In this document: positions 4,571 to 24,000 of the stretch, in pieces | Layout of the letters: each line of letters begins with the position of its first letter | Numbering within the stretch: position 1 is the first letter of the stretch | From: Rhodococcus sp. 4CII | GTDB taxonomy: Bacteria > Actinomycetota > Actinomycetes > Mycobacteriales > Mycobacteriaceae | Direction: 5' to 3' | Length of the DNA: 24,000 nt | Assembly: GCF_014256275.1 (NCBI RefSeq) | Contig: NZ_JACCFE010000002.1 | Span: forward strand, 4,222,489 to 4,246,488 | Notes under the pieces: generated by a model | What the model was told of the DNA's origin: nothing | What the model saw: the letters and a program-made list of their open reading frames with translations, nothing else | The model's database searches: none | Made by a program: the position numbers and the translations under genes

Positions 4571-5933
4571 AACAACGAGTGCCCGGGTCCGGCGGTGGCT
4601 GGACGAGCGGGCCATCACGTCGATTCGAATCGAGGCGACGAACCTCGACGGGACGTTCGTGGGAAAGTCGATTTCCCCGAAGAAGTTCCTGAGCGGACTC
4701 GAGACGGGATTTCCGTTCGCCGATGTCGTCCTCGGCAACGATCTCGGTAACTTTCCCCAGTTCGGTTTCGCCTTTCCGGAGTGGCGCGGCGATCTGCTGG
4801 ACATCTTCCTGCGTCCCGACCTGAGTACGCTGATCGAATGGGAGCCTGGCAAGGCATCCGTCATCGGCGACTTCTGGACCAAGACCGGCGCCCCGGTGTC
4901 GGTATGTCCGCGGAACCTCTTGCGCAAGGTGGAGCGGCAGGCTGCTGAAGAGGGCTACTCGGTGAAGGCGGCGATCGAGATCGAAGCGACCCTCTTCGAG
5001 GAGTCGGTTCACGAAGCGCGCCGCAAGGGATACAAGGATCTGACCCCGCTCGGCGGTCTGGCCGGCTCAGCCTATGTGCACGCCAAGTCCGGCGATTGGT
5101 GGCAGTTCCTGGACCGAGTGCAGCACCGTTTGGAAGAGCTGGGACTGGAGTGGGAGGCGTGTAACGACGAGGCGGCCGTCGGTCAGATCGAGATCAACGT
5201 CGCCGTCGCCGACATCGTCACCACGGCCGACAACTGGGCCCGGACCCGACAGGTCGTTCGTGAGGTCGCGAACGAGCTGGGTCGGTCGGTGACGTTCATC
5301 GCCAAGTGGTCCGACGCGTGGGGCCAGGCTTCGCATCTGAACATCTCGTTGGCGAACGAGGACGGCAACGCGTTCTTCGCCGAGGACGGACCGTCCGACG
5401 TGATGCGAAACTTCATCGGCGGCGTCGTGCAAACCATGCCCGGGGCAACCTCGCTGGCACTGCCGTTCATGACCTCTTACCGGCGGCAGATTCCGCTGGA
5501 AGGCCCGCCCACGACCGTCACCTGGGGCATCGACAACAAGACCACCGCCGTCCGTGCGGTGACCCGTCACCCGAAGTACTCGCGCATCGAATACCGGACG
5601 CCGGGAGCAGATTCCAACGCGTACCTGGTGGCTGCGGCGGTGCTGGGAGCCGGACTCCACGGTGTCGTCAACGGCGTCGAGCCGCCTGCCCCGTTCGTCG
5701 GCATGGCCTGGTGCAACCCGGCCGCCACCGAGACGCTGCCGCACACGATCACCCGCGCCGCCGATGCGCTCGCAGCCGACAAGGCACTGGCCCAGGTACT
5801 CGGGCAGGAATTCGTCGACTACTGGATCGGAACCCGACGCTGGGAATGGCTGGCGTTCCACACCATGGGTGGCGGCGACCCCGACTGCGGGATCACCGAC
5901 TGGGAACTCAACCGCTACTTCGAACTCGTATGA
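4563..5933 (+). CDS. Glutamine synthetase family protein, gamma-glutamyl-amine ligase type (PuuA / IpuC / GlnA4-like)
   Basis: 456 aa counted from ATG 4563, which overlaps the upstream stop. GS catalytic-domain blocks are AIEIEATLFEE, VTFIAKW, GQASHLNISL and RIEYRTPGADSNAYLVAAAVLGAGLHG. The track's start at 4539 is an upstream in-frame alternative. Confidence 0.9.
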   Translation: MAETTSARVRRWLDERAITSIRIEATNLDGTFVGKSISPKKFLSGLETGFPFADVVLGNDLGNFPQFGFAFPEWRGDLLDIFLRPDLSTLIEWEPGKASVIGDFWTKTGAPVSVCPRNLLRKVERQAAEEGYSVKAAIEIEATLFEESVHEARRKGYKDLTPLGGLAGSAYVHAKSGDWWQFLDRVQHRLEELGLEWEACNDEAAVGQIEINVAVADIVTTADNWARTRQVVREVANELGRSVTFIAKWSDAWGQASHLNISLANEDGNAFFAEDGPSDVMRNFIGGVVQTMPGATSLALPFMTSYRRQIPLEGPPTTVTWGIDNKTTAVRAVTRHPKYSRIEYRTPGADSNAYLVAAAVLGAGLHGVVNGVEPPAPFVGMAWCNPAATETLPHTITRAADALAADKALAQVLGQEFVDYWIGTRRWEWLAFHTMGGGDPDCGITDWELNRYFELV

Positions 5934-7042
5934 GCACGCGTATCAAGGCGGCAGTGCTCAACGCCGCGCCAGGTACGTTGGATATCGAAGAGCTGGTCAT
6001 CGACGACCCCGAACCCGACGAGGTGCTGGTCCGGATCGCGTACGCCGGTCTGTGTCATTCGGACCTGCACGAGATGGATGGAACCTTCGAGTCCGACACG
6101 CCGATCGTGCTCGGCCACGAGGCGGTGGGCGAAGTCGTCGAGGTCGGAAGCGCTGTGACGGAGTTCGGTCCAGGGGACACCGTCGTGACCTGTCTGTCGG
6201 TGTACTGCGGGTCGTGCGAATTCTGCCTGGCCGGGCAGCAGACCCTGTGCGCGCGTCGGGCGGAGTTGCAGCAGGGCCGCGCCCGGCCCCGTCTGACGAA
6301 CAGTCAGGGGGCGGCGGTGCGCGCCACTGCCGGGATCGGTGGTTTCGCCGAGATGGCACTGGTCCACAAGAACAGCGTCGTCGGGATCGCGCCGGGGGTA
6401 CGTCTGCAAACGGCGAGTGTGCTCGGCTGCGCGGTGACCACCGGGATGGGCTCGGTGCTGCAGAGCGCCTGCGTTCGTCCGGGGCAGACTGTCGCGGTGA
6501 TCGGGCTCGGCGGAATCGGATTCTCCGCGGTGCAGGCCGCCCGGCTGGCCGGCGCGGCTCAGATCATCGGCGTGGACGTCGTGCCGGAAAAACTGGAGCA
6601 GGCCAAGTTCTTTGGAGCAACGAACGTGGTGAATGCCCGCGAGACCGACCCGGTCGCGGCGGTGCGGGCGCTGACCAGCGGCGGCACCGACCACGCGTTC
6701 GAGGCGGTCGGCTCCGGGGCCACCGCAGGGCAGGCGTTCGCGATGCTGCGACCGGGCGGCGTGGCCACGGTGATGGGCATGATCCCGGATTCGCATTCGA
6801 TTCCACTTCGTGGATCCGAACTCTTCATGCAGGAAAAGAGCTTGCGCGGGTCGTTCATGGGATCGAACCACTTCAAGGTGGATATCCCCATGTATCTGCA
6901 GTTCGCACGGGCGGGACTGTTGCAGCTCGACGAGCTGGTCACCGCAGAATACTCACTCGAAACGATCAACGAAGGGTTCTCTGCCCTGGCATCAGGCAGG
7001 GAAATCCGCGTTGTCGCACGAATCGGGAAGGAGTCGACATGA
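5930..7042 (+). CDS. Zinc-dependent alcohol dehydrogenase (MDR family)
   Basis: ATG 5930 overlaps the previous stop (ATGA). Motifs are GLCHSDLH, GHEAVGEV, the structural-Zn cysteines CGSCEFCLAGQQTLC and the Rossmann VIGLGGIG. 370 aa. The listed 578-aa ORF is an upstream extension overlapping the GS-like gene. Confidence 0.9.
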   Translation: MSTRIKAAVLNAAPGTLDIEELVIDDPEPDEVLVRIAYAGLCHSDLHEMDGTFESDTPIVLGHEAVGEVVEVGSAVTEFGPGDTVVTCLSVYCGSCEFCLAGQQTLCARRAELQQGRARPRLTNSQGAAVRATAGIGGFAEMALVHKNSVVGIAPGVRLQTASVLGCAVTTGMGSVLQSACVRPGQTVAVIGLGGIGFSAVQAARLAGAAQIIGVDVVPEKLEQAKFFGATNVVNARETDPVAAVRALTSGGTDHAFEAVGSGATAGQAFAMLRPGGVATVMGMIPDSHSIPLRGSELFMQEKSLRGSFMGSNHFKVDIPMYLQFARAGLLQLDELVTAEYSLETINEGFSALASGREIRVVARIGKEST

Positions 7043-7821
7043 GACCACTCATCGGTATCACGGGCCGTTGCTATCGGCTGGAAATGGTGGCCGGTACATC
7101 GCCCCGCTTCACCGATCGGTTGACGAACTCCTTCTTCACCGACTTCGACCGGTGCGTGGCCGAAGCCGGAGGCATTCCGGTCAACCTTCCGTTCGTGTCG
7201 AGTTCGACCGGTGTGGCCGACAGGCTGGACGGGTTGATCGTGACGGGCGGACAGGACGTGCACCCGTCGCGCTGGGGTGGCATGCAGCCGGTCGACCCGG
7301 ATGCCGATCCGCGCCGGAACATCGACGTCATCGACTTCGAGCGGGACCAGTACGAGGCCGATCTGATTGCCGATGCGCTGTCTCTGGGCATCCCCATTAT
7401 CGGCGTGTGCCGCGGGCATCAGCTGCTGAACGCCGTCCTCGGCGGAACGCTGATCGAGGACATCGAGGAAACGTCAATCGTGCATTCTTCACCGAAGGCT
7501 GCCCCCTACGCCGGTGACGACAAGCATGTCGTCGAATTTTCCTCTGGCAGTGTCGGACGCCAGATCTACGGTGCCCATCGAACATCGAACTCATGGCACC
7601 ATCAGGCGGTCGACCTGCCCGGTGTCGGACTCACGGTCACCGGCCGAGCCACCGATGGAATTGCAGAGATGATCGAGCTGAGTGGCCGACCGGTTGTCGG
7701 CGTCCAGTGGCACCCCGAATGGCAAACCGAGCGTGACCCGATCTTCGATTGGCTCATCGAACGGTGCACGTGGACCATGGACGAGCGCCAAAAGGGCCAA
7801 CAGGACAGGAAGGTCGGTTAA
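7039..7821 (+). CDS. Gamma-glutamyl-gamma-aminobutyrate hydrolase family protein (peptidase C26, PuuD-like class I amidotransferase fold)
   Basis: ATG 7039 overlaps the ADH stop (ATGA) and follows GGAAGGAG. Nucleophile motif GVCRGHQLLN and the His/Glu motif VQWHPE are present. 260 aa. Confidence 0.9.
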   Translation: MRPLIGITGRCYRLEMVAGTSPRFTDRLTNSFFTDFDRCVAEAGGIPVNLPFVSSSTGVADRLDGLIVTGGQDVHPSRWGGMQPVDPDADPRRNIDVIDFERDQYEADLIADALSLGIPIIGVCRGHQLLNAVLGGTLIEDIEETSIVHSSPKAAPYAGDDKHVVEFSSGSVGRQIYGAHRTSNSWHHQAVDLPGVGLTVTGRATDGIAEMIELSGRPVVGVQWHPEWQTERDPIFDWLIERCTWTMDERQKGQQDRKVG

Positions 7822-7994
7822 CTCTCGGATCCGAGTTTCGGTCGAAATCGGCCTAGTCCACCACTGGATATGGTCAAGCGATTACACATGTTATGAGTCC
7901 CCGCACCCCAAAGGTGGTGCAAGCCAGCCCGTGTCGACAATCGTCTCGACAGGTTCGGGCTGGAGTTCAGTTACACGAGGAGTTGTCACCGGGT

Positions 7995-9245
7995 ATGGGT
8001 CTTCAATCTTCACTTGCCGCATTTCAGCGTTCCCGGAACAGCATTGGCGGCGGGGTCAGTTCGGGGCTGCGTGCGTCCATGCAGCCGCATCCGTTGTTCG
8101 TCGCGGAAGCTCGCGGCGCCCACGTCTGGGACCTCGACGGTGATCGCTATGTCGACTGTGTAATGGCATGGGGTGCAATGGTACTCGGTCACAGCGACGA
8201 ACGGGTGGTGTCGGCGGTCCGGGGAGTCCTGGACCGCATGCAGGTGGTCGGCACCGGTCACGTCCTGGAGTATGCGGCGGCGGAAGCGGTGCTGGACGCG
8301 GTTCCGCACGGTGAGCGCCTGCTGTGGAGCAACACCGGCACCGAGGCCGTGCAGGTGTCGCTGCGGCTGGCCCGGGCCGCGACCGGACGTCGACGCATCG
8401 TCAAGTTCGCCAAGAGTTACCACGGCTGGCAGGATTCGGTCTATGCGGGCATGTCGTCGGACGAGTACGGCAGGCCGACGCTGACCGCAACCAAAGGTCA
8501 GAGCCCGAGCGTCCTCGATGACCTGATCGTCTCGGAGTTCAACGACATCGAGATGATCACCGGCATTCTCGAGGACGCGCGCGAGCTCGAGATCGCCGCG
8601 GTCCTGCTCGACCCGATCATGAGCAACGCCGGGGTGACCGAACCGCTCCCGGAGTTCTTGCAGGCGGTGCGGGCGCTGTGCGATAAGGCCGGCGTGGTGC
8701 TCATCTTCGACGAGGTCATTGCTGGCTTCCGGATCGCGCGCGGTGGCGCCACCGAGCGCTTCGGGGTACGCCCGGATCTATCGGTGCTCGGCAAGGCGAT
8801 TGCCGGCGGGTTCACCCAGAGCGCGGTCGTCGGCCGCGCGGACTTGATAGATCAGGTCACCGACGGCGTGGTGCACGCCGGAACGTTCAACGGAAACCCG
8901 GTCGCGTTGGCCGCGGTCGAGGCGACGATGGGTGTGCTCGCGGACCCGGCGGTGTATGCGACGCTGGAGAGCAACGCGGCGCGGTTCCACGACCGGTTCG
9001 ATACGGTACTGGCCGACGCCGGAGTCCCGGCCCATCTGAACCGGGTCGGATCGTTGCTGCAATTCGTGCCGGAGGACGCGGCCACCGGGCTCCACGGAAC
9101 CGGCGGCATCTGGGGGAAGGTCCTGGGCGGGATGCTCGCCGAAGGCGTGATGTTCATGCCCTCGGGAAAAATCTTCCTGAGTACTGCGCACACCGCGGAA
9201 GACATCGACTTCATTGCCGAGGCGCTGAGCCGCGTCGTCGTCTGA
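7995..9245 (+). CDS. Class-III (PLP) aminotransferase, glutamate-1-semialdehyde aminomutase-like
   Basis: Motifs are WGAMVLGH, DEVIAGFR and LGKAIAGG (PLP lysine). ATG 7995 is preceded by GAGGAG. The track's start at 7893 adds 34 non-conserved residues. Confidence 0.85.
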   Translation: MGLQSSLAAFQRSRNSIGGGVSSGLRASMQPHPLFVAEARGAHVWDLDGDRYVDCVMAWGAMVLGHSDERVVSAVRGVLDRMQVVGTGHVLEYAAAEAVLDAVPHGERLLWSNTGTEAVQVSLRLARAATGRRRIVKFAKSYHGWQDSVYAGMSSDEYGRPTLTATKGQSPSVLDDLIVSEFNDIEMITGILEDARELEIAAVLLDPIMSNAGVTEPLPEFLQAVRALCDKAGVVLIFDEVIAGFRIARGGATERFGVRPDLSVLGKAIAGGFTQSAVVGRADLIDQVTDGVVHAGTFNGNPVALAAVEATMGVLADPAVYATLESNAARFHDRFDTVLADAGVPAHLNRVGSLLQFVPEDAATGLHGTGGIWGKVLGGMLAEGVMFMPSGKIFLSTAHTAEDIDFIAEALSRVVV

Positions 9246-9276
9246 GCTGTTGGCGCGCGCCGTCCGCTTGCCTGCT

Positions 9277-9290
9277 TGATCACGTGATCA
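9277..9290. promoter_or_regulatory. Perfect 14-bp palindrome TGATCACGTGATCA (operator or weak terminator candidate)
   Basis: Checked base by base. It lies 32 nt downstream of the aminotransferase stop, in the 281-bp gap before the dioxygenase gene. Confidence 0.3.
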
Positions 9291-9468
9291 GAAGGAGCGC
9301 CGATTCGGTGCCCGCTTCGGCATCGACGGCCTGAGTGACGCGTCCGGTCGGATTCGCGAAGGTGCACAGATCGTGGGCTAATAGTGCTGTACCACAGTAC
9401 TTTCAAGAGAAGGAACGACCGCCGACGCGGATGTGACGGATCTAACCAAAACCCTTGTCTGAACACTG

Positions 9469-9498
9469 ATCAAACGATAAAATCAAACGATTATAAAT
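9469..9498 (+). promoter_or_regulatory. Two direct ATCAAACGAT repeats followed by a TATAAA -10-like box in a locally AT-rich stretch
   Basis: ATCAAACGAT occurs at 9469-9478 and 9482-9491. TATAAA is at 9493-9498, about 29 nt before ATG 9527. GGATGGAGAA is the likely Shine-Dalgarno. Confidence 0.3.
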
Positions 9499-9526
9499 CA
9501 CCCGTCTACCGGATGGAGAACAAGAT

Positions 9527-10390
9527 ATGACTGTCGACCAGCAGGCACTGCAGCGAGTACCCGTGACCACGTCTGCGGAGAAGATTCTCGAGATCGTCCG
9601 CCGCGACGGCGGCGTGATCATCGGAGACTTCCTCACCGAGGACCAGATCAAGCGCTTCAACGCTGACATCGACGATCCGATGGCAAAGCTGCGCCCGGGC
9701 TCGACGCATGACGGCCTCATCGCCGAGTTCCACGGAAGCAACACCAAGCGCCTGACGAATCTGGTCACGCACAGCGAGACTTTCCGCACGGAGATCATCG
9801 AGCACGACCTGGTTCATGAACTGAGCGATCAGACCTTCGTCGAGGAATCCGGCACGTACTGGATGACCACGGCGCAGGTCATCGAGATCGGCCCAGGTAA
9901 CAAGGCTCAGATGCTGCACCGTGACCTGGGCAACTGGGCGCCCTTCATCGCCATGGGCCCGTCCGGCCCCGAAGCGTGCATCAACTTTCTGATCGCGCTG
10001 ACCGACTTCACCGAAGAGAATGGTGCGACTCGTGTCATCCCGGGCAGCAATCATTGGGACGACTTCGAGGACAACGGGACTCCGGAAGGGACGATCCCGG
10101 CGATCATGAAGGCCGGCGACGCGCTGTTCATCAGTGGTAAGACTGTCCACGGTGGCGGGGCCAATCTCACTGACAACAAGTACCGTCGGGCTGTTGCGTT
10201 CACGTTCAACGCCGGCTTCCTGACCCCCGAAGAGGCCTACCCGTTCATCGTCGATCTGGAGATAGCCAAGTCGCTGTCGCCGCGTGCGCAACGGCTGGTC
10301 GGATTCCGCTCGCAGTACCCGCTGACATCGCCTGGCCTGTGGCAGGTCGATTACAACGAATTGGCCGGAGTCCTCGGGCTCGACAGCTGA
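9527..10390 (+). CDS. Phytanoyl-CoA dioxygenase (PhyH) family Fe(II)/2-oxoglutarate-dependent oxygenase
   Basis: 287 aa. HxD in MLHRDLG, a distal His in GKTVHGGG, and a TRVIPGS block typical of PhyH-family enzymes. Confidence 0.85.
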   Translation: MTVDQQALQRVPVTTSAEKILEIVRRDGGVIIGDFLTEDQIKRFNADIDDPMAKLRPGSTHDGLIAEFHGSNTKRLTNLVTHSETFRTEIIEHDLVHELSDQTFVEESGTYWMTTAQVIEIGPGNKAQMLHRDLGNWAPFIAMGPSGPEACINFLIALTDFTEENGATRVIPGSNHWDDFEDNGTPEGTIPAIMKAGDALFISGKTVHGGGANLTDNKYRRAVAFTFNAGFLTPEEAYPFIVDLEIAKSLSPRAQRLVGFRSQYPLTSPGLWQVDYNELAGVLGLDS

Positions 10391-10449
10391 ATCGGTCGTT
10401 CGAGAATTCAGAGCAGCGGCACCGAGCCGCGCGAAAGGCGGAAGTAACC

Positions 10450-11955
10450 GTGGCAGTCGAAACTGAGACCCCGGGACGGGCCACACCCAACGAGTGGCTG
10501 GACGTCGAAATGCCGGCCGAGTTGCCGACCGCGATGTGGATCGACGGCGAGTGGGCGCAGGCAAGCGGCGGCAATACCGCAACGCATACCAGTCCCCGCC
10601 GCGGCGAGACAACGCAGGTGGCGAGTGCTGCCGAAGTGGATGTCGAGCGCGCGATACAGGGCGCCAAGAACGCCTTTCGCAGCCGGGTGTGGGCAGGCTT
10701 GGAGCCGCGTGAGCGTGGTGAGGCGCTGATCCGGTGGGCCGACCTGCTCGACCAGCATCGTGATGAACTGGCATTCCTTGTCGCGTATGAAATGGGTAAA
10801 CCCGTCACAATCGCGTGGAACGTCGAAATGCGTACCGCGATCAACACTGTGCGCTGGTACGGCGAGCTGGCCGACAAACTGATGGACGAGTCGCCGCGCG
10901 GGCGCAACGGCGCGGTCGCCCTGGTGACCCGTGAACCGGTCGGCGTCGTCGGCATCATCACGCCGTGGAACTTCCCGATGACACTGGCCATGTTCAAGAT
11001 TCCGGCTGCCCTGGTCGCCGGCAACAGCGTCGTCGCCAAACCGGCCAGTCAGACGCCGTTCTCGTTGCTGCGGGCCGCGGAGCTTGCCTACGAGGCGGGC
11101 ATTCCGTCGGGCGTGCTGCAGGTGATCACCGGCAGCGGCGCCAAGGTCGGCGAGCAGCTGGGCAAGCACGACGACATCGCGACCCTGGCCTTCACCGGAT
11201 CTACCGACGTCGGAAAGCAGCTGCTGTCCTACGCGGGTGCGTCCAACGCCAAGCCGGTGTGGCTCGAGCTGGGCGGCAAGTCGCCGAACATCGTGTTCCC
11301 CGACGCGCCCGACCTGGACCGGGCAGCATCAATGGCTGCCTGGGCGGTGTCCTTCAACAGCGGTCAAATGTGCACTGCAGGGTCGCGATTGGTGGTCCAC
11401 GAAGACATACGCGACGAAGTGGTGGCGAAGGTCGTCGACAACCTGAACGCGGCGGTGATCGGTGATCCTCTGGATCCGGCGACCACTCTCGGTCCGCTCG
11501 CCTTTGCCGCGCATCGCGACGACGTCCTGGCCGAGATCCGCAAGGGGATCGACTCGGGTGCCAAACTGGTTCTGGGCTCCGATACCAGGCGTGATGACGG
11601 CCTGTACGTCGACCCTGCTGTCTTCGTCGACGTCGATCCGGACAGCAGGCTCGCTCAGCACGAGATCTTCGGTCCGGTGCTGGCGGTGCACTCCTTCCGT
11701 ACCGAGGAGGAGGCGCTCGCGATCGCGAACAATACGGTTTTCGGATTGGGTTCGTCGGTGTGGACCGCGGATCTGAGCCGGGCTCACCGGATGGCGCGCG
11801 GGATCGACGCCGGTATGGTCTGGATCAACTGCTACGAAGAGGGCGACTCCTCGGTCCCGTTCGGCGGACGCAAGCTGTCCGGGCACGGTGCGGACAGGAG
11901 CAATCACGGTCTGGATAAATACACGCACCTCAAGACGACCTGGATCGAGCTGTAA
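10450..11955 (+). CDS. NAD(P)-dependent aldehyde dehydrogenase
   Basis: Motifs are WIDGEW, ITPWNFP, FTGSTDVG, ELGGKSP and catalytic Cys in GQMCTAGSR. GTG 10450 after AAGGCGGAAG was chosen as start. ATG 10510 is an alternative. The track's ATG 10339 overlaps the preceding gene. Confidence 0.85.
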   Translation: MAVETETPGRATPNEWLDVEMPAELPTAMWIDGEWAQASGGNTATHTSPRRGETTQVASAAEVDVERAIQGAKNAFRSRVWAGLEPRERGEALIRWADLLDQHRDELAFLVAYEMGKPVTIAWNVEMRTAINTVRWYGELADKLMDESPRGRNGAVALVTREPVGVVGIITPWNFPMTLAMFKIPAALVAGNSVVAKPASQTPFSLLRAAELAYEAGIPSGVLQVITGSGAKVGEQLGKHDDIATLAFTGSTDVGKQLLSYAGASNAKPVWLELGGKSPNIVFPDAPDLDRAASMAAWAVSFNSGQMCTAGSRLVVHEDIRDEVVAKVVDNLNAAVIGDPLDPATTLGPLAFAAHRDDVLAEIRKGIDSGAKLVLGSDTRRDDGLYVDPAVFVDVDPDSRLAQHEIFGPVLAVHSFRTEEEALAIANNTVFGLGSSVWTADLSRAHRMARGIDAGMVWINCYEEGDSSVPFGGRKLSGHGADRSNHGLDKYTHLKTTWIEL

Positions 11956-12156
11956 TCGCTGGGTGCGCGACAGATCGTTTCTGATGTTCGGGGGCCACTG
12001 ACGCCTATCCGCTGCGCGAACACGTTGTCTGCCAGGGCAATGCGATCGTCAGTCGACATACGTCCCGGGAACCGGAACACCCGGGTAGGCCTCGGTGACG
12101 CCGAACTCATTCTGAAACGGTCAGTGAGTAACGGTATTTCAATGAAGGCCATCGCT

Positions 12157-12188
12157 CCCCGGATCGCGCGGGCAAATGCGATCCGGGG
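12157..12188 (+). terminator. 11-bp perfect stem / 10-nt loop hairpin
   Basis: CCCCGGATCGC-gcgggcaaat-GCGATCCGGGG lies 200 nt after the ALDH stop and 30 nt before ATG 12218. No U-tract is present. It could be a terminator, attenuator or processing site. Confidence 0.3.
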
Positions 12189-12217
12189 ACCGGTGTCAAC
12201 GAGAGAAATGGATTGTC

Positions 12218-13099
12218 ATGTCCGATGTATCGGTTCTCGGTCTCGGTCTCATGGGGAGCTCAATCGCCCACACACTGATCGACAAGGGCTACTCGGTTAC
12301 CGTGTGGAACCGAACCACGGAGAAGGCCGCCCCCCTGACGGCGGCAGGCGGCAAAGCGGCCTTCACCGCTGTCGAGGCCGTCGAGTCGAGCCCCATCACT
12401 ATCTCCGTCCTCGTCGATTCCTCCGCTCTCGTCGAGTGTCTCGGTGACGACATCGATTTGACCGGTCGCACCATAGTGAATCTGGCGACAGGGACCCCGG
12501 CGGATGCACGTGAGCTCGAGCAGTGGGTCACCAAGCGGAACGGGCTGATGCTGTCAGGTACGATCTCGGCTTATCCAAAGGACATCGGCACTCCTGTGGG
12601 CGGGGTGAACTACGCAGGGCCCATTGAGCTTTGGAACCGGAATGCGGAGATGCTTCTCGCGCTCGGCGGCTTGAGCGGGCACGTCGGCGAGGTTATTACC
12701 GACGCGAGCACCCTCGACCTTTCGATGCTGATCTTCTACATGTCGAGCATCGCCGCGTTCCAGGAGGCGGTGGTCTTCGCGGAAGCGTTCGGTGTGAGTC
12801 CGGACCGGCTCGTCGAGTTCGTCAGGCCGGGACTGCCGGTCCTCGAACGTGAAGTCGACGAGACGGTGCGACGAGTCGAAAGTGGCGACTACACAACCGA
12901 CGAGGCGACGATCGGAACCTTCCATCACTGCATGGACCTCGTCTGGAAGGCGTCCGCCACGATCGCGGCCCGTCCGATTATCTCCTCCGCCGCCCGTGAA
13001 CTCTTCGCCCTCGGAGTATCGGAGGGCCGGGCGAACGAGATCCCGTCAGGTGCCGTCCCCCTATTGCGGCAGATCCGAGACCGCAGCCAACATAGCTGA
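12218..13099 (+). CDS. Imine-reductase / beta-hydroxyacid-dehydrogenase family NAD(P) oxidoreductase (intact paralogue of 1103-1977)
   Basis: ATG 12218 opens MSDVSVLGLGLMGSSIA (GxGxxG). The block DASTLDLSMLIFYMSS has Asp where beta-HAD enzymes carry the catalytic Lys, as in Asp-type imine reductases. 293 aa. Confidence 0.85.
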   Translation: MSDVSVLGLGLMGSSIAHTLIDKGYSVTVWNRTTEKAAPLTAAGGKAAFTAVEAVESSPITISVLVDSSALVECLGDDIDLTGRTIVNLATGTPADARELEQWVTKRNGLMLSGTISAYPKDIGTPVGGVNYAGPIELWNRNAEMLLALGGLSGHVGEVITDASTLDLSMLIFYMSSIAAFQEAVVFAEAFGVSPDRLVEFVRPGLPVLEREVDETVRRVESGDYTTDEATIGTFHHCMDLVWKASATIAARPIISSAARELFALGVSEGRANEIPSGAVPLLRQIRDRSQHS

Positions 13100-13654: not shown

Positions 13655-14127
13655 TAGTGTCCCGCGTCAGAAATTCGTGAGATATATTTGGCGAGGGAAT
13701 CGAGGATCTCCTCGGCGGTCTTGTGCCAGACGAACGGCTTCGGGTCGTCGTTCCAGGTCTTGATCCAGTTGCGAACGTCTTTCTCCAGTGCTGCAACGCT
13801 TTTGTGTACACCACGGCGGAGCAGCTGATCGGTCAGGAATGCGAACCATCGCTCGACCTGATTGATCCACGAGGACCCGGTCGGGGTGAAGTGGACGTGA
13901 AAACGTGGGTGCTTGGCCAACCAGTCGCCCACTGCCGGCGTCTTGTGGGTGGCCAGGTTGTCGCAGACGAGATGCACGTCCAACTCGTCGGGGACGGCCT
14001 TGTCGATCGCGGTGAGGAACTTCTTGAACTCCACGGCCCGGTGACGTCGATGAAGCTCGGAGATCACCGTGCCGTCGGCGATGTTGAACGCCGCGACTCC
14101 CCCAAGGACTACGTCCAGGGAGGTACC
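13654..14127 (-). CDS. IS630-family transposase, C-terminal part in the -1 frame (second Asp and Glu of DDE)
   Basis: The -1 frame is open from 14127: [22 protein letters not shown]... VCDNLATHK ... [11 protein letters not shown]. The stop codon TAG (13654-13656) is built from the flanking TA target plus one flanking base. The join to the N-terminal part needs a -1 shift at CUG GGG G. Confidence 0.7.
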
Positions 14128-14825
14128 CCCAGGCTGGTGACGCCGCTGCGGGCGTAGTCATGACTGCGCCGTTCCGGCATGCCCGGCATCATCGGCAGCA
14201 CCGGCTGGGAACGGTTCAAGGCCTGCATCTGACTCTTCTCGTCCACACAGAGGATAACGGCATGCTCGGGCGGATTATGGTAAAGGCCAACAACATCGAC
14301 GACCTTGTCCACGAACTGCGGATCCGTGGAAAGCTTGAACCCGTCGGTCAGATGCGGTTTGAGTTCGAACTTGCGCCAGATCCGGCCGATCGTCGACGGT
14401 GACAGGCCGGTGCGCTTGGCCATCGAGGTACGCGACCAGTGCGTCGCATCGGCCGGGGCGGTTTCCAGCGTCGCGGTGACCACGTCTTCGACCCGGTCCA
14501 GCAAGATCGAGGGCGGACGACCCGGTCGAGGTTCGTCGACCAAGCCGTCGAGGCGTCGGTCGACGAAGCGCCCGCGCCATTTGTTGACCGTGTTAGCGGA
14601 TATCCCCAGGTCTGCCGCGACTTGCTTGTTGGTCATCCCCGGCTCCGCGCAGGCCAACACGATCCGCGACCTCAGTGCCAACGATTGTGGGGTTTTCGCT
14701 CGCCGCGACCATCGAACGAGTTGTTCGCGTTCGTTATCGGTCAACATCAACTCCGCCTTCGGGCGTCCGGTTCGAGGCATGCCTCAGGATATCAAGTTAA
14801 AGCACGAATTTATGGCGTACGACAC
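13657..14825 (-). mobile_element. IS630-family insertion sequence (1169 bp) with TA target duplication
   Basis: Terminal inverted repeats are GTGTCCCGCGTCAGAAATTCGTG (13657-13679) and the reverse complement of 14803-14825, GTGTCGTACGCCATAAATTCGTG; 18 of 23 positions match. TA flanks both ends (13655-13656 and 14826-14827). A DDE transposase lies inside. Confidence 0.8.
14109..14780 (-). CDS. IS630-family transposase, N-terminal part (HTH domains plus first DDE Asp)
   Basis: [24 protein letters not shown]... shows a paired HTH region, and LCVDEKSQ carries the first Asp. The frame stops at 14109, just after a G5 run (14126-14130). Confidence 0.8.
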
Positions 14826-15997: not shown

Positions 15998-16681
15998 ATG
16001 ATGAAGAACTCTGCATCGGGACTGCGCCGGGGCGTCCGTATTGCAGGCCTGGGTGCTGCTGCGGCTGCCCTACTCGGTGTGATGTCTACTGGTGCGGCGA
16101 GCGCGGATACTTTCATCCCGCTGCCTGATGGTTCGAAGACCGGCCCGAATGTGACGTTGACGCGGACGGCGGAGAGTGCTCTGTCGTCGCCGTCGTTGGC
16201 TGCCAATGGCGTCGGTCGTGTGGCGTGGGTGTCGGGCACCGTCGTTGCCGATGTCAAGGGCATCAAGGACGTCACCGACGTTCCGGACGCGAACAACACG
16301 ACGAACAATGCGGGTACCTACAACGGTACGAATGCGTCGACCACGCATGGTGTTTCGCGGGTGTCGACCGGGTACATCGTGGGTTGCCAGGTGGACATCA
16401 CGGGTCTGTCGGCGAACCCGTCGTTCAGTCTGGGTTTGGATTCGTTGTCGGCGAGTGCGGGTCTGACGGTTCCGTTGGCTTCGGGTGAGGTCAAGTACGT
16501 GCCGCTCGGTGGTAAGGACATCAAGAAGGACGGCGTCTACGCGCTGCAGTACCAGGATTCGGAGCTGCAGGTGCAGAAGTGCGGCGGTTTCGCGCAGGCT
16601 CGTTCGTACTCGGTCGTGGAGATCGTGGGCAACGACTACTCGAAGACCGTTCTGTACGGTGCGCCGTTCAGCATCGGCTGA
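15998..16681 (+). CDS. Secreted MspA-family porin-like protein, paralogue 1
   Basis: Sec signal MMKNSASGLRRGVRIAGLGAAAAALLGVMSTGAASA|DTF. The blocks GRVAWVSGT, GYIVGCQVD, KCGGFAQARSY and the C-terminal TVLYGAPFSIG parallel MspA blocks (TREWFHSGRA, GYQIGFP, GAAGGVLLRPFA, TTYGEPWNMN). GAGGGA is the likely Shine-Dalgarno. Confidence 0.8.
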   Translation: MMKNSASGLRRGVRIAGLGAAAAALLGVMSTGAASADTFIPLPDGSKTGPNVTLTRTAESALSSPSLAANGVGRVAWVSGTVVADVKGIKDVTDVPDANNTTNNAGTYNGTNASTTHGVSRVSTGYIVGCQVDITGLSANPSFSLGLDSLSASAGLTVPLASGEVKYVPLGGKDIKKDGVYALQYQDSELQVQKCGGFAQARSYSVVEIVGNDYSKTVLYGAPFSIG

Positions 16682-16752: not shown

Positions 16753-17436
16753 ATGATCATCAACCGTAAGAACGGTGTGCGTCTGGCCGCGGTCGGGGCC
16801 GCTGCTGCCGCGACCATGGGCTTCTTTTCCGTCGGTGCGGCGAACGCCGACACGTTCGTGCCGCTGCCCGGTGGCAGCATCACGCAGACCCTCGCGGACG
16901 GCACCGTGGTGACGGTGAACCTGACGGACGAGAGTGCGAACATTTCGCCGTCGATGGGGTCGACGCCGTTGCACCGCAACGTGTGGGTCTCCGGCAAGGC
17001 CGCCGTCGCGCTGCAGGGTGACGGTGTGCAGAGTGCGTACATCTATCCCGGCTACGTGCTGGCGTGCCAGGTCGACTTCGGTGCCGAGGCGGGCGCCGAG
17101 GGTGGGGCGGGGATGTCGTGGGCGGACATCGCGACCGGGTCGGTCGGGAATCCACTTGCCGGGGGGACAAGTGGCGGAATCACTCTCGGCCCCGGCCAGG
17201 CGATTCCGGTCGACATCCTGGACCAGGAATACGCCGACCCCTACGGCGGGGAGGCGCATTGGGGTGGCAACTACGTCGAGGGACCCACCGGTTCGGTCTC
17301 GTGGAGCGACTCCACCCTCGGGGTGAGCGGGTGCGCCGGCTACGCCCAGGCCCGGGCCTTCGTCAACGTCGAGGTCGAGACCGAGAACGTCACGAGCACC
17401 GTCACGCTGTGGGGCCAGCCCTTCAGCATCGGCTAG
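16753..17436 (+). CDS. Secreted MspA-family porin-like protein, paralogue 2
   Basis: Signal MIINRKNGVRLAAVGAAAAATMGFFSVGAANA|DTF. Blocks are HRNVWVSGK, GYVLACQVD, SGCAGYAQARAF and C-terminal VTLWGQPFSIG. Length (227 aa) is the same as paralogue 1, but the central loop region differs and is Gly/Ala-rich. Confidence 0.8.
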   Translation: MIINRKNGVRLAAVGAAAAATMGFFSVGAANADTFVPLPGGSITQTLADGTVVTVNLTDESANISPSMGSTPLHRNVWVSGKAAVALQGDGVQSAYIYPGYVLACQVDFGAEAGAEGGAGMSWADIATGSVGNPLAGGTSGGITLGPGQAIPVDILDQEYADPYGGEAHWGGNYVEGPTGSVSWSDSTLGVSGCAGYAQARAFVNVEVETENVTSTVTLWGQPFSIG

Positions 17437-19697: not shown

Positions 19698-20414
19698 GTG
19701 AACACTTTCCATACGGCGTTGCTGCTGATCGCCAACGTCTCGATGCTGGGCGCCGGCTACTATTACGGCGTCAAATTCCTTCGCCGCCAGCATAATCTTC
19801 TGCTCGGGATCGAGTGGCTGGTGATTGCGTTGTCCGGGACGAACGTGCTGTTCCTGGCCGCCACCGGGATCGTGCACTCGAGTTTCAGCTATCACCTCAT
19901 GGTGTTCTTCGACGCGTTCTCGCGTTCGTTCGGGATGACGCTGATCATCGTGCTCGGGATGATGGCGGTGACCCGCGGGTACCGTCCGTCGTGGATGGTG
20001 GACGTCGGCGCCGTTGCGGCAGCGGTCGCGGTGGGATTGAACCGCACACTCGAAGTACGTCCCGTCGAGTTGGGATGGGCGATCTTCTATCTCGTGATGA
20101 ATCTTGCGGTGGCGCTGTTCATGTTCGCGGTAGCAGTTCGTTTGTGGCAGATCCGTGAGCGACGGCACGCGGTGGGAGTCTTCGTGGCTACGGCCCTCGG
20201 AGCGTTCGTGGCGGTGATCTACGACTTCTTCCCGATTCCGGGTGATGATGCAGACCACACGCTGTTCTACATTCTGGCGTTGTCGGTCTGGGCTCTCATG
20301 CTCGTGACCTACTACCACGGATACCGCGTGCTGGGCGAGTACACCCGGGGCGCCTCCGGTGACGGTCTCGCGCCCGCGGCGGTGGAGGTGTCCGGCGTGG
20401 TCAGCCCACAGTGA
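19698..20414 (+). CDS. Integral membrane protein, about 7 predicted TM helices, unknown function
   Basis: GTG 19698 follows GAAGGA. 238 aa with seven hydrophobic stretches. Coding-type GC3 is strong. No family motif was recognised, and there is no rhodopsin-type Lys in the last helix. Confidence 0.7.
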   Translation: MNTFHTALLLIANVSMLGAGYYYGVKFLRRQHNLLLGIEWLVIALSGTNVLFLAATGIVHSSFSYHLMVFFDAFSRSFGMTLIIVLGMMAVTRGYRPSWMVDVGAVAAAVAVGLNRTLEVRPVELGWAIFYLVMNLAVALFMFAVAVRLWQIRERRHAVGVFVATALGAFVAVIYDFFPIPGDDADHTLFYILALSVWALMLVTYYHGYRVLGEYTRGASGDGLAPAAVEVSGVVSPQ

Positions 20415-20523
20415 TCAGACGCTTGACGAGCTTGCCCGTGTGCCTGCGCGGCAGGACGGTGATCGCGGTCCAATTCGACTTCACCAGTCCGAGTTCCAAT
20501 GCTGGGGAGCACGACCGGATCGA
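20401..20523 (-). pseudogene. Possible C-terminal relic of an AMP-dependent synthetase/ligase (acyl-CoA synthetase)
   Basis: LELGLVKSNWTAITVLPRRHTGKLVKRL followed by a stop resembles the conserved C-terminus (YK.P..I.FV..LPRT.TGK..KR.L) of adenylate-forming enzymes. Only about 40 codons are recognisable, and they overlap the 3' end of the membrane-protein gene. Confidence 0.3.
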
Positions 20524-20893
20524 CGTCGGTGCCGCCACGCGGCCTACCGGGTTGGGTGCCGCCCGTGTCCGAGGAAGAGGGGGGCGTCCTCGCACACGAG
20601 CGGCGGGCGGCCACCCGGCCGAGGGGGACCGGTCAGGGGACCTGGCTGCGTCTCGGGGCCGCCGAGCCCAGTGCAGCGTAAATGTCGGGTACCCCGCCGA
20701 TGGGCGAGTTACTCGGGCGCGGCGGAAATGTTGTGCGCCGCCGGTTCACCCCGACTACCTACCCGGCCGAAGAACAGACCGGACGGTACCGACATCCGCA
20801 ATGCGTCTCATCCCAGTTCGGCAGACGTGGGTCGCAAGTCGGCCGTCGGACGGGCAGTCGGCGATATCCTGAGGAGATGAATCGATGTAGTCG

Positions 20894-23800
20894 ATGACCG
20901 ATGTCGATCCGTTCGCGACCCAACGCGACGTGTCCGGTTCGGTCACCGCGGAGTTGGCGGCGGCCGGGTTCGACGACGCCCAGGAGATCGGTCGTGGCGG
21001 TTTCGGGGTGGTCTACCGCTGCACCCAGACCGCGCTCGACCGCACCGTGGCGGTCAAGGTACTCACCGCAGACCTGGACGCGGAGAACCGGGCGCGGTTC
21101 CTGCGCGAACAGCGTGCGGCGGGCCGGCTGACCGGGCACCCCAACATCGTCAACGTTCTCCACGCCGACGTTACGGAGAACGGCCGGCCGTTCATCGTCA
21201 TGCCGTATTGCGCGGGGAGTTCTCTCGACGAGCGCATCCGGCGCCATGGTCCGCTCCCACCGGACGAAGCACTGCGGTTCGGAGTCAAGACGGCCGGGGC
21301 GCTGGAGACTGCCCACCGCCTCGGAATCCTCCATCGCGATGTCAAGCCCGGGAACATCCTGATCACCGACTACGGTGAGCCCGCGTTGACGGATTTCGGC
21401 ATTGCGCACATCGCCGGCGGGTTCGAAACCGATGCCGGGATCGTGACGGGATCGCCGGCGTTCACCGCCCCCGAGGTGGTGGCCGGCGACCCGCCGAGTC
21501 CTGCCGCCGACGTCTACGGTCTCGGTGCGACGCTGTTCGCGGCCATCACCGGGCACGCTGCCTTCGAGCGCCGCAGCGGTGAGCAACTGGTGGCGCAGTT
21601 TCTGCGGATCACGTCCGAGCCGGTTCCGAACCCGCGCGAGCACGGCATCGCCGAGGACATCAGCGCGGTCATCGAGCGCGCGATGTCCGCGGAACCCGGT
21701 GACCGACCCTCCGCGGTGGAACTGGGCCGGCAACTTCGTGAGTGCCAACTGCATCACGGCTTCCCGGTCGACGAGATGGCGATGAATCCGGAACCCGTTG
21801 CAGTGCAGGGCGGGTTGCCCGTCGTGGGAGGCCGTTCGACGGAGGAAAGTGCGTCACGCAGGCCCGCGTGGTCACCGGCCGATTCGGGTCGGACGGGTGG
21901 ACTTCCGCTCGAGCTCACCAGCTTCGTGGACCGCCGCACCGAACTGGCCGAGGCGACGAACCTCTTGTCGACGTCGCGGCTGGTGACGTTGACCGGAATC
22001 GGCGGGGTGGGCAAGACCCGGCTCGCCCTGCGTGCCGCCACCAAGGTGCAACGGAACTTCTCGGACGGCGTGACGCTGGTCGAACTGGGTGAGCTGCGCG
22101 ATGATTCGCTGCTGCCGGGGATGGTGGCGGCTGCGCTGGGGGTGCGGGACCAGTCGGCGCGATCCGCTCACGAGGTGCTGGTCGAGTTCCTCGCCCCGCG
22201 GGACCTGTTGCTCGTGCTGGACAACTGCGAGCAGGTGGTGGCCGCGGCTGCGAAGCTCGCCGAGATCCTGCTTCGAGCGTGTCCGCAGTTGCGGATTCTC
22301 GCCACCAGTCGCGAAGCGCTCGGGATCGGCGGGGAAACGGCGCTGCTGATTCCCCCGCTGCCGGTCCCGGATCCCGATCACCTTCCGAAGGGTCTGCCCC
22401 GCAACGATGCGGTCACTCTGTTCGTCGAGCGGGGCGCCGCCGCCGTCCCCGGGTTCGAACTCACCGAGGACAACAAGGTCACCATTGCCAGGATCTGCCA
22501 GCGGCTGGACGGACTGCCGCTGCCGATCGAGTTGGCGGCCGCCCGGCTTCGAGCGATGACGCCCGACCAGATTCTGCGGCGGCTGACCGACCGCTACCTG
22601 CTTCTCACCCGCGGCAGCAGGGATGCGCCGTCGCGGCAGCAGACACTGCGGATGTGCATCGACTGGAGTTACGACCTGTGTACACCCGCGGAACAACGGA
22701 TGTGGGCGCAGCTGGCCGTGTTCGCGGGCAGTTTCGAACTCGAGGCCGCGGAACAGGTGTGCGGCGGCGGCGAGGCGGAGGACCTGCTCGACACGGTGAC
22801 CTTCCTCGTCGACAAGTCGATCCTGACACGTGAAGAGTCGGGTACCGCGGTGCGGTTCCGGATGCTCGAGACCTTGCGCGCCTATGGGTGCGAAAAGGCG
22901 CAGGAGAGTGGGGAGTACACCGAACTTCGCCGTCGGCACCGTGACTGGTGTGAGCGATTGGCGCTGGACGCCGATGCCGATTGGATCAGCTCCCGGCAGC
23001 TCCCGCTGATCGCCCAGCTGGGGCGGGAACAACCGAATCTCCGTGAGGCGCTGGAGTTCTGCGTGTCCGAAAGCCCGGACATCGGAGTGCGCATCGCCGC
23101 CGCTCTGTACCCGTTCTGGCTGTCCCGCGGATTGTTCGGCGAGGGGCGGCGGTGGCTCGGCCGCTTCCTCGATCGGCTGCCGTCCGAACCGACGAGCGAT
23201 CGCGCGACGGCGCTCTACGCCGGCACCGTGCTTGCCGGAGTACAGGGCGACATCCCGGTCTCGGACACCCTGGCGGACGAGGCGCAGGCGCTCGCCGCCC
23301 GGACGACCGACCCGATGGTGCGCGCCCACGTCGACCACACGGTCGGATACGCAGCACTGTTCGGTGGGCGGCTCCCCGACGCACGCGCGCGACTCGACCA
23401 GGCCGCCGAGGCCTTCGCGGGACGCAACGACCTCTACGAGGTCGCCGCCATCGTGGGCCTGGGTATGACGCACGACCTCTTGAACGACACGGCACGGGCC
23501 ATCGAATGCCATGAGCGCGTCCTCGCGATCACCGAGGCGCAGGGCGAATCGGTTTATCGGTCCTATTCGTTGTGGGCGCTGGCCGTGGCCGTGTGGCGGC
23601 TCGGCGAGAGGGAGCGCGCGGCGCGCCTCCTCGGGCAGGCACTCCAGGTGGACCGCCGGGTGAACGACCGGCTCAATGCCAGCGTCTGCCTGCAGGCGCT
23701 CGCGTGGATCGCCGCGGAGGAGGACAACGCGGAGCGGGCGGTCGTGTTGATGGGAGCCGCCGACGCGCTGACCCGGTCGGTGGGCAGTTCGGCGGTGTTG

Positions 23801-24000
23801 GTACCCGGTCTGAGCGTGTATCAGGACGAGTGCGAACACCGGACCCGGGAGGCGCTGACCGAGCAGGCGTATGCCGCGGCGCACGAAAGGGGTCGGGGGT
23901 TCGGCTTCGACGCAGCGGTCGCCTACGCACTGGGCGAGCAGGTGTCGTCCGCGCAGGCGTCGGCGTCGGCGGGTCCGTCGTCGAAGCCGACGAAACGGGA
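20894..24000 (+). CDS. PknK-type Ser/Thr protein kinase fused to a STAND (NB-ARC-like) P-loop NTPase and TPR-like repeats; 3' end beyond the window
   Basis: This ORF is not in the supplied track. I translated it by hand from ATG 20894, which follows an in-frame TAG at 20888, to nt 24000 without finding a stop (1035 codons). Kinase motifs are GRGGFGVVY, VAVK, HRDVKPGN, DFG and SPAFTAPE. The P-loop is LTGIGGVGKTRLA (GIGGVGKT = 21995-22018) and Walker B is LLLVLDNCE (about 22205). Helical-repeat segments alternate to the window end. GC3 is strong. Confidence 0.9.
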   Translation, partial: MTDVDPFATQRDVSGSVTAELAAAGFDDAQEIGRGGFGVVYRCTQTALDRTVAVKVLTADLDAENRARFLREQRAAGRLTGHPNIVNVLHADVTENGRPFIVMPYCAGSSLDERIRRHGPLPPDEALRFGVKTAGALETAHRLGILHRDVKPGNILITDYGEPALTDFGIAHIAGGFETDAGIVTGSPAFTAPEVVAGDPPSPAADVYGLGATLFAAITGHAAFERRSGEQLVAQFLRITSEPVPNPREHGIAEDISAVIERAMSAEPGDRPSAVELGRQLRECQLHHGFPVDEMAMNPEPVAVQGGLPVVGGRSTEESASRRPAWSPADSGRTGGLPLELTSFVDRRTELAEATNLLSTSRLVTLTGIGGVGKTRLALRAATKVQRNFSDGVTLVELGELRDDSLLPGMVAAALGVRDQSARSAHEVLVEFLAPRDLLLVLDNCEQVVAAAAKLAEILLRACPQLRILATSREALGIGGETALLIPPLPVPDPDHLPKGLPRNDAVTLFVERGAAAVPGFELTEDNKVTIARICQRLDGLPLPIELAAARLRAMTPDQILRRLTDRYLLLTRGSRDAPSRQQTLRMCIDWSYDLCTPAEQRMWAQLAVFAGSFELEAAEQVCGGGEAEDLLDTVTFLVDKSILTREESGTAVRFRMLETLRAYGCEKAQESGEYTELRRRHRDWCERLALDADADWISSRQLPLIAQLGREQPNLREALEFCVSESPDIGVRIAAALYPFWLSRGLFGEGRRWLGRFLDRLPSEPTSDRATALYAGTVLAGVQGDIPVSDTLADEAQALAARTTDPMVRAHVDHTVGYAALFGGRLPDARARLDQAAEAFAGRNDLYEVAAIVGLGMTHDLLNDTARAIECHERVLAITEAQGESVYRSYSLWALAVAVWRLGERERAARLLGQALQVDRRVNDRLNASVCLQALAWIAAEEDNAERAVVLMGAADALTRSVGSSAVLVPGLSVYQDECEHRTREALTEQAYAAAHERGRGFGFDAAVAYALGEQVSSAQASASAGPSSKPTKR

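Follow-up and report, generated by a model that had tools for sequence, protein, structure and literature searches.

Kinases fused to LuxR-type DNA-binding domains have already been catalogued in Rhodococcus: the survey of Santos et al. 2012 (PMC3466318) distinguished 'PKc+LuxR' and 'PKc+TPR+LuxR' as LuxR subfamilies of the genus, counted 9+2 such proteins in RHA1, 6 in R. opacus B4 and 1 in R. erythropolis PR4, ascribed these numbers to lineage-specific expansion and regarded the family as specific to Rhodococcus. Searches of the literature for a kinase-LuxR fusion of this genus with a characterised function gave catalogue-level mentions only, and returned no family member with a reported ligand, DNA site or substrate. 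Here, we describe a gene of this family that lies at the 3' end of a stretch of 24,000 nucleotides (nt) from Rhodococcus sp. 4CII (NCBI RefSeq assembly GCF_014256275.1, contig NZ_JACCFE010000002.1, positions 4,222,489 to 4,246,488 of the forward strand; hereafter the window). Its product joins a Ser/Thr protein kinase to an NB-ARC-like STAND NTPase, a TPR region and, as read from orthologues, a C-terminal LuxR (GerE) helix-turn-helix (HTH). The gene is thus of a known kind, belonging to a large, annotated and catalogued paralog family, and this copy adds nothing to the databases or to the 2012 survey; it has the same architecture as the subfamily described there and is a strain or species variant with nothing essential different. 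The modest additions concern the family itself, namely a nucleotide-binding oligomerisation domain (NOD) related to NB-ARC and shared with LuxR and SARP regulators, discordant affinities of its two halves, the apparent absence of the MHD His, and its occurrence beyond Rhodococcus. The central NB-ARC-like NTPase was not recognised in the 2012 survey, and we find the family in Nocardia and Mycolicibacterium as well.

Several related proteins have been characterised. The M. tuberculosis kinase PknK phosphorylates external substrates such as VirS; a review takes its STAND domain to suggest a signalling hub, and a 2025 preprint on a bacterial kinome atlas places more than one domain architecture in its PknK family. 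In AfsR, the DNA-binding domain is inhibited by the NOD and the TPR region, a block that ATP lifts; the kinase AfsK phosphorylates conserved NOD/TPR residues of AfsR, the Walker A Thr among them, and increases the ATPase activity of AfsR (PMC10936776). According to a 2026 preprint, AfsR has a His-Asp switch motif. Characterised STAND regulators rest as closed ADP-bound monomers locked by contacts of arm and sensor, in which binding of an inducer to the sensor permits ADP/ATP exchange, opening and multimerisation (PMC6468293, PMC4381067), and the activation of MalT/LAL-type regulators is inducer- and ATP-dependent and proceeds via multimerisation. The first of these papers also describes double autoinhibition in a STAND-TPR protein.

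Direct translation of the + strand from ATG 20894 gave 1035 codons without a stop up to the end of the window (position 24000). An in-frame TAG (20888-20890) directly precedes the opening of the frame at 20891, so that ATG 20894 is the first possible start, and the N-terminus MTDVDPFATQRD agrees with the starts annotated for orthologues and for M. tuberculosis PknK. Compared with orthologues, about 59 codons and the stop are missing. The initial annotation, made from the letters alone, had claimed an uninterrupted + frame of at least 1035 codons from this ATG, carrying the motifs GRGGFGVVYRC, HRDVKPGN, DFG, GIGGVGKTRLA and LLLVLDNCEQ, and our translation returned the frame and every one of these motifs. 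Its further statements, that this is the largest gene within the window and that it was absent from the track of open reading frames (ORFs) for want of a stop in the window, are borne out by a survey of the window's genes and by the rule of the mechanical ORF list, which omits frames running off the source sequence.

A homologue search yielded more than 7,500 matches, the best 120 of which were all proteins of 1019-1118 amino acids (aa) from Rhodococcus and Nocardia. The closest among the matches listed, P0001 of Rhodococcus sp. NPDC056960 (1092 aa), is 96% identical and collinear bar one 2-residue indel. A chromosomal homologue of R. opacus B4 is 90% identical, and P0054, which on a plasmid of R. 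jostii RHA1 bears the annotation 'protein kinase/transcriptional regulator, LuxR family', shares 71% identity with the window protein along all of its visible length. The window protein is collinear with homologues of 1079-1100 aa, and orthologues at 85-96% identity bear the RefSeq name 'protein kinase (domain-containing protein)'. Since an exact-match search of the genome contigs with the last 60 nt of the window found no match, and no contig therefore extended its end, the C-terminus was read from the 96% orthologue. The frame is a real, intact Rhodococcus gene, cut only by the end of the window.

The kinase domain is of the Hanks type. It matched the Pfam profile Pkinase (PF00069) at 153.4 bits against a cut-off of 31.7 (E 1e-44, residues 28-277), and the structures of PknB, PknA and other kinases matched it at E 1e-35. 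The expected residues are all present (GRGGFG 33-38, K55, E72, HRD 147-149, N154, DFG 167-169 and APE 192-194); the catalytic residues, together with T179 and T185 of the activation loop, are invariant in 16 kinase-fused members of the family that share 64-91% identity.

Searched by sequence against the PDB, the C-terminal module matched TPR and GerE structures only; no match covered the NTPase, which was therefore placed by structure prediction. An AlphaFold2 model of residues 330-1035, built on an alignment of 109 sequences, reached a mean predicted local distance difference test (pLDDT) score of 92.7 and a predicted template modelling (pTM) score of 0.87. It comprises a five-stranded nucleotide-binding domain (NBD), a helical domain (HD) and a winged-helix domain (WHD) with a beta-hairpin, followed by about 17 helices. 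The best Foldseek match in the PDB was a STAND-TPR crystal structure (6mfv, E 1e-13, probability 1.00); Apaf-1 (1e-9) and the ZAR1, Sr35 and NRC resistosomes (about 3e-9) also matched with a probability of 1.00, as did CED-4, with a root-mean-square deviation of 3.5 A over 389 columns. MalT was not among the top 50 fold matches. The likeness to 6mfv (PH0952-type), Apaf-1, CED-4 and plant NLRs extends over the order NBD-HD-WHD-sensor (E 1e-13 to 1e-7), whereas sequence identity is 12-18% and these proteins carry other effector domains, without a kinase or a LuxR HTH.

The motifs of the module were counted in the same 109 relatives of residues 330-1035 (alignment A2), which are 38-65% identical. 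GIGGVGKT (368-375), LLVLD (439-443), the sensor-1 motif T471-S472-R473 and GLPL (540-543) are invariant or at least 98% conserved, and the Walker A Thr, T375, is conserved too. The Walker B region of the subclade reads DNCEH, with an invariant Glu three residues past the Asp. The GLPL motif is typical of NB-ARC/AP-ATPases. With the NB-ARC profile itself, the window protein scored 22.9 bits against a cut-off of 23.5 over residues 361-474, a partial match to positions 18-137 of 248, and P0054 scored 23.9 bits; in Pfam scans of samples of 10 and 9 proteins from the 109-sequence set, relatives scored 28-44 bits, those at 43-50% identity 28-38 bits, and covered up to positions 19-247 of 248. Weak matches of the window protein to AAA_16, AAA_22, NACHT and nSTAND3 fall on the same P-loop. 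At the position that we take, from its motif pattern, as probably equivalent to the MHD switch, the relatives read R-F/Y-R-M/L-L-E-T, with Leu in place of His in 101 of the 109, followed by Glu in 79 and Asp in 22. The module is a distinct NB-ARC-related subclade. The motifs, the NB-ARC matches of the relatives and the fold agree in this with the initial annotation, which had seen an NB-ARC-style P-loop and Walker B rather than a MalT-like module.

The part that follows, described from the letters as TPR-like repeats, contains a TPR_12 match above its cut-off (residues 811-881, 36.6 bits against 30.1). It also matches the TPR structures of LGN/Pins, and in the model about 17 consecutive helices span residues 675-1012 with pLDDT >90. 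The last visible residues, ...SSKPTKR, had been proposed as a linker before a possible HTH; P0001 indeed continues into a GerE domain (residues 1031-1083, 56.5 bits against a cut-off of 23.5), which matches the C-terminal DNA-binding domains of NarL and DevR, and full-length members of the family all end in such a GerE/LuxR HTH. Conservation among paralogs differs between regions: mean pairwise identity is 78% in the kinase, 73% in the NBD, 76% in HD/WHD, 55-58% in arm/TPR, 82% in GerE and 29-37% in the two linkers, a flexible one behind the kinase and a short one before the HTH. This makes arm/TPR the most divergent folded region. As judged by these identities, the sensor-like TPR region is the part that diversifies between paralogs.

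The C-terminal module also occurs outside kinase fusions. An exhaustive search of representative sequences with this module retrieved 131,984 cluster representatives at E<=1e-3, 62,670 of them at E<=1e-30, and residues 330-1035 share, along their full length, 41-54% identity with proteins that carry no kinase. The commonest form among the best 150 representatives is about 780 aa long, with the match starting within the first ~10 residues. These kinase-less relatives came from the representative search, whereas the top 120 of a homologue search with the C-terminal module belonged mostly to the same kinase-fused family. The architectures in the Pfam-scanned samples include stand-alone NB-ARC-(TPR)-GerE proteins named 'ATP-binding protein' or 'LuxR C-terminal-related transcriptional regulator' (P0249, P0251), kinase fusions with GerE (P0252, P0255, P0259, P0271, P0277, P0285, P0362) or without it (P0295, P0306, P0317), SARP fusions with Trans_reg_C and BTAD (P0297, P0300, P0352, P0391), an HTH_3 fusion (P0332) and a TetR_N fusion (P0325). 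Further proteins of 1,300-3,900 aa (P0250, P0256, P0257, P0267, P0291, P0333, P0360, P0390) hold 2-6 tandem NB-ARC-TPR copies, as counted from the matched stretches.

Set against these relatives, the window protein shares GxGGxGKT, DNCEH, TSR, GLPLAIELAA, RYRxLET and the GerE end with the stand-alone NB-ARC-TPR-LuxR regulators of Actinomycetes (about 780 aa), which lack its N-terminal kinase. MalT and the LAL regulators likewise combine a STAND NTPase, a helical-repeat sensor and a C-terminal LuxR HTH, but they have no kinase, and the window protein belongs to another STAND clade, with NB-ARC as its borderline match and TPR_MalT weak in some relatives; a Pfam scan of the window protein gave no MalT-type match. 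As for distribution, when one genome was scanned for each species, 196 related loci came to light in Rhodococcus and Nocardia, with several in a genome, and one kept locus stems from a Mycobacterium sp. metagenome-assembled genome; the Mycolicibacterium member was found in a separate look-up.

Given these domains, we consider it reasonably probable that the gene encodes a cytoplasmic single-polypeptide signalling protein of about 1094 aa working as a STAND switch. The analyses above establish the identity of the domains, their catalytic and nucleotide-binding motifs and their fold, whereas the mechanism is inferred from MalT, PH0952-type proteins, AfsR and Apaf-1. In the resting state, the arm and the TPR sensor would keep the protein closed as an ADP-bound monomer. 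A small-molecule or protein ligand, probably specific to each paralog, would bind the TPR sensor and release the lock, after which ADP would be exchanged for ATP and the NOD would multimerise. Two outputs may follow. The LuxR HTHs would be brought together, leading to the binding of promoter DNA and a switch in transcription; the N-terminal kinases would also be brought together, allowing trans-autophosphorylation of the activation loop (T179/T185) and the phosphorylation of targets, which may be other transcription factors, as with PknK and VirS, or the protein's own NOD/TPR, as with AfsK and AfsR. The family would in this way join the two principal signalling outputs of bacteria, Ser/Thr phosphorylation and direct control of transcription, to an NLR-like ATPase switch, which makes it a reasonable target for studies of how STAND modules control kinases.

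Several points weigh against this mechanism. Pre-incubation of AfsR with ATP changed neither its oligomeric state nor its DNA binding in vitro (PMC10936776), so that activation driven by oligomerisation is not universal among bacterial NB-ARC regulators. The MHD His is apparently replaced by Leu, and the sensing of nucleotides may therefore differ from that of classical NB-ARC proteins. The NB-ARC match of the window protein itself falls 0.6 bits under the Pfam cut-off, and the HTH lies beyond the window and is known from orthologues only. Moreover, ligand, nucleotide state, oligomerisation, DNA binding and kinase activity are all predicted, and the sequence would suit the kinase as an output or as a regulatory input alike.

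The apoptosome activates caspase-9 by induced proximity. By extension, the family may form bacterial 'signalosomes', in which ligand-triggered STAND oligomerisation would activate the kinase by induced proximity along with LuxR-mediated transcription; a PknK-type kinase would have been joined to another STAND clade, and the family would have grown to many paralogs in each genome of Rhodococcus or Nocardia, with TPR sensors tuned to different metabolite or protein cues. We put this forward tentatively and expect that it may well fail. If it is true, the apparent loss of the MHD His in the clade would imply a non-canonical sensing of the bound nucleotide.

A reading that overlaps with the STAND switch, and differs from it in the direction of information flow, takes the protein as AfsK and AfsR in cis: the kinase would be mainly a regulatory input that phosphorylates the NOD, TPR or HTH of its own or partner protomers, leaving LuxR-dependent transcription as the sole real output. 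The two systems share a logic in which a Ser/Thr kinase acts on a transcription factor of the NB-ARC-TPR type. The C-terminal module is 44-45% identical to the SARP-NB-ARC-TPR proteins P0297 and P0300 over about 690 residues, the Walker A Thr, one of the sites that AfsK phosphorylates on AfsR (PMC10936776), has its counterpart in the conserved T375, and the same NB-ARC-TPR-LuxR chassis works without a kinase in its commonest form (about 780 aa). However, the kinase is about as conserved among paralogs as the HTH (78% and 82%), and it is specifically PknK-like, PknK being a kinase with external substrates such as VirS. The architecture differs as well, AfsR having an N-terminal SARP as its DNA-binding domain and its kinase on a separate protein, while here the kinase is fused N-terminally and the LuxR HTH is C-terminal; a Pfam scan of the window protein found neither BTAD nor Trans_reg_C. 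At the switch, this clade has Leu-Glu at the position presumed equivalent to the His-Asp reported for AfsR, and its SARP-fused relatives, with 'LET', are by sequence not AfsR-like at this position and thus not AfsR proper. We regard this reading as rather unlikely, though it is the main alternative.

The next reading would make the protein a functional orthologue of M. tuberculosis PknK (Rv3080c) doing the same job, namely adaptation of growth and translation with VirS-type substrates, the difference in the C-terminus being of no consequence. PknK was retrieved by a sequence query; the database entry, 100% identical to the query, is P0121 (1110 aa, in a cluster of 2,424 members), and the same retrieval returned entries named 'serine/threonine-protein kinase PknK [Mycobacterium tuberculosis]'. 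Using the orthologue P0001 in BLASTP, PknK was 63% identical over residues 1-324 (405 bits, compared with 125 bits for PknB), a stretch made up of the N-terminal tail MTDVDP.AT.RD, the kinase domain and a juxtakinase segment, in line with the initial annotation, which had noted an N-terminus close to PknK. Both proteins are alike in consisting of a soluble kinase, a STAND NTPase and helical repeats. Family members are named 'PknK' by JGI and in one GenBank record, and the kinome atlas preprint, with its several PknK architectures, would accommodate them. On the other hand, the same BLASTP comparison found no similarity past residue 324, and the C-terminal 770 residues are only remotely related: aligned as profiles with hhalign, the C-terminal superfamily (A2) and the PknK orthologues (A5) shared 554 columns with a probability of 96.7% and 21% identity, which at the level of profiles identifies both C-termini as collinear, very distant STAND-plus-repeat modules. 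The PknK C-terminus matches AAA_16, NPHP3_N and AAA_22, and its orthologues are called 'MalT' by JGI; a Pfam scan of PknK found no GerE domain, in contrast to the NB-ARC-like module, TPR_12 and GerE of the window family. Precomputed domains also list PF25872 (HTH_77) for the kinase-LuxR family, whereas PknK carries PF25873. The window protein therefore shares with the PknK orthologue group its PknK-like kinase but not its MalT-type STAND module without a DNA-binding domain, and the many paralogs per genome are unlike a single conserved orthologue. We consider functional orthology improbable. The discordant affinities of the kinase and the C-terminal module (63% and 21% identity to PknK) suggest domain shuffling.

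STAND NTPases with TPR sensors include phage sensors. An anti-phage STAND protein (Avs/NLR-like) with a kinase as its effector would fit this background, the appearance of Avs3 among the fold matches (rank 22), the matches of the kinase domain to PADLOC kinase models such as PD-T4-6 and mad6, and the location of several paralogs on large plasmids and in variable regions. All PADLOC matches are, however, confined to the generic kinase domain (residues ~24-314), the C-terminus, as read from orthologues, is a LuxR DNA-binding domain, the closest relatives regulate transcription, and the genes around it encode catabolic enzymes, porins, an esterase and a membrane protein, with no defence genes nearby. 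A defence role is very improbable and was rejected, as the PADLOC matches were to the kinase only, with neither a match to a full-length model nor the context of a defence island.

The coding strand is settled by composition and by substitutions. GC at codon positions 1/2/3 of the + frame is 0.73/0.50/0.84, as in true genes of high-GC actinobacteria. In both antisense ORFs, GC1 (0.80-0.85) exceeds GC3 (0.71-0.73), because their first codon position complements the true third position. Compared with the closest orthologous locus, L001, whose DNA is 93.8% identical from 20519 to the end of the window, the aligned codons hold 164 nt differences, distributed 34/15/115 over positions 1/2/3 of the + frame; 115 of the codon changes are synonymous and 42 non-synonymous, giving a rough estimate of about 0.1 for the ratio of non-synonymous to synonymous substitution rates (dN/dS). 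The antisense translations (670 and 332 aa) had no Pfam match even at E<=0.1, and all three lines agree with the earlier view of these ORFs as antisense shadows. The notion that the + frame is open merely by chance in DNA of high GC content, the gene being one of the two antisense ORFs, can appeal to the fact that long ORFs on both strands are usual at 68-71% GC, but it is already refuted by the codon-position GC, the third-position bias of the substitutions, the thousands of + frame homologues and the empty antisense Pfam scans, and we give it practically no credence. For annotation, the lesson is that ORF lists drop frames leaving the window, so that the largest gene is missed, and that antisense shadows should not be annotated.

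Table 1. Coordinates of the kinase-STAND gene, its domains and motifs, and other features of the window.
Feature	Position	Strand	Remarks
Coding sequence, Ser/Thr kinase - NB-ARC-like STAND NTPase - TPR - LuxR (GerE)	20894..24000	+	5' 95%: 1035 of about 1094 codons; cut by the window end
Hanks-type Ser/Thr protein kinase domain, aa 28-277	20975..21724	+	Pfam, motifs
Variable linker between kinase and NTPase, aa 291-336	21764..21901	+	37% mean pairwise identity among paralogs
Nucleotide-binding oligomerisation module, aa 337-672	21902..22909	+	Five-stranded NBD, helical domain, winged helix (AlphaFold model)
Walker A/P-loop GIGGVGKT, aa 368-375	21995..22018	+	G368, G371, G373, K374 invariant in 109 relatives
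Walker B region LLLVLDNCEQ, aa 438-447	22205..22234	+	D443, E446 invariant; hhhhDNCE(H/Q)
GLPL-type motif DGLPLPIELAA, aa 539-549	22508..22540	+	G540, P542 invariant
Winged-helix motif VRFRMLETLRAYG, aa 653-665	22850..22888	+	Presumed site of the MHD switch
Arm and TPR-like helical-repeat sensor, aa 675-1012	22916..23929	+	Pfam, model
Low-complexity linker (SSAQASASAGPSS), then T-K-R, the first three GerE/LuxR HTH residues	23930..23998	+	
670-aa antisense ORF	21872..23884	-	Shadow of the + gene
332-aa antisense ORF	20759..21757	-	Shadow of the + gene
Conserved 5' non-coding region	20519..20893	+	Travels with the gene; GC-rich inverted repeat, GCGATATCCT motif
Glutamine-synthetase-like enzyme	4539-5933	+	
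Peptidase C26/GATase	within 5662-7821	+	
Class-III aminotransferase	7893-9245	+	
PhyH-family dioxygenase	9527-10390	+	
Aldehyde dehydrogenase	10339-11955	+	
RedAm-like NAD(P) reductase	12176-13099	+	
OrfB_IS605 (TnpB) fragment, 144 aa	13103-13537	+	Apparently truncated
IS630-like HTH_32/HTH_23 transposase, N-terminal piece	14109-14780 (within 13667-14780)	-	
MspA-family porins, tandem, 227 aa each	15998-16681, 16753-17436	+	First: partial, E 7e-23; second: full profile, E 4e-42

The 375 nt 5' of the gene are 93.8% identical in L001 and partly kept in R. opacus B4, while the sequence farther upstream differs. They contain a GC-rich inverted repeat with 18-nt arms (20558-20575 and 20587-20604) and, at 20862-20871, the motif GCGATATCCT, which recurs upstream of paralogs and whose TATCCT (20865-20870) fits a TANNNT -10 element. 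No known RNA element was recognised in this long 5' region, since scanning the entire window with Rfam yielded no match. The sequence GAATCGATGTAGTCGATGAC (within 20871-20896) is invariant in the three closest loci. A GAGGAG stands 8 nt before an 'ATG TAG' start-stop (20885-20890); its distance to the real ATG is 17 nt. This 'ATG TAG' was dropped as a minimal upstream ORF: two plasmid paralogs read ACGTAG and ACG-AG there, and it is probably non-functional.

Between the kinase gene and the next gene upstream lies a gap of 480 nt. That gene (19698-20414, +) encodes a predicted multi-pass membrane protein of 238 aa without a Pfam match; its 3' part is 90% identical to a 145-aa gene at the same position in R. 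opacus B4 (L002 9124-9561), but the gene is absent from L001. An Abhydrolase_3 esterase gene lies between the porins and the membrane-protein gene. Synteny with L001 breaks at 20519, whereas the B4 chromosome has in common with the window the kinase gene, some of the 5' region and the 3' portion of the gene for the membrane protein. In L001 and B4, the kinase gene is preceded by a glutamate dehydrogenase gene and followed by genes for an amino-acid permease and WhiB; variable insertions occur as well, among them a DDE transposase in B4. The plasmid paralogs (DK17 pDK3, PD630 pRoPD630_1) stand alone, with large intergenic gaps and unrelated neighbours. Their small upstream ORFs (60 and 75 codons) were considered as partners and rejected, as they resemble neither each other (by eye) nor the upstream gene of the window. 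No conserved operon partner was found in the five contexts compared, and the gene looks monocistronic, without a conserved partner and in a variable region, which fits a self-contained one-component system.

The suggestion that the gene borders a mobile, rearranged region holds in part. Synteny with the closest orthologous locus breaks at 20519, and the mobile-element debris, represented by the transposase fragments, lies 6-7 kb upstream of it, between a catabolic cluster and the porin genes. The genes of that cluster, on the same strand from 4539 to 13099 (+), resemble a gamma-glutamylation-type cluster for the catabolism of amines or polyamines.

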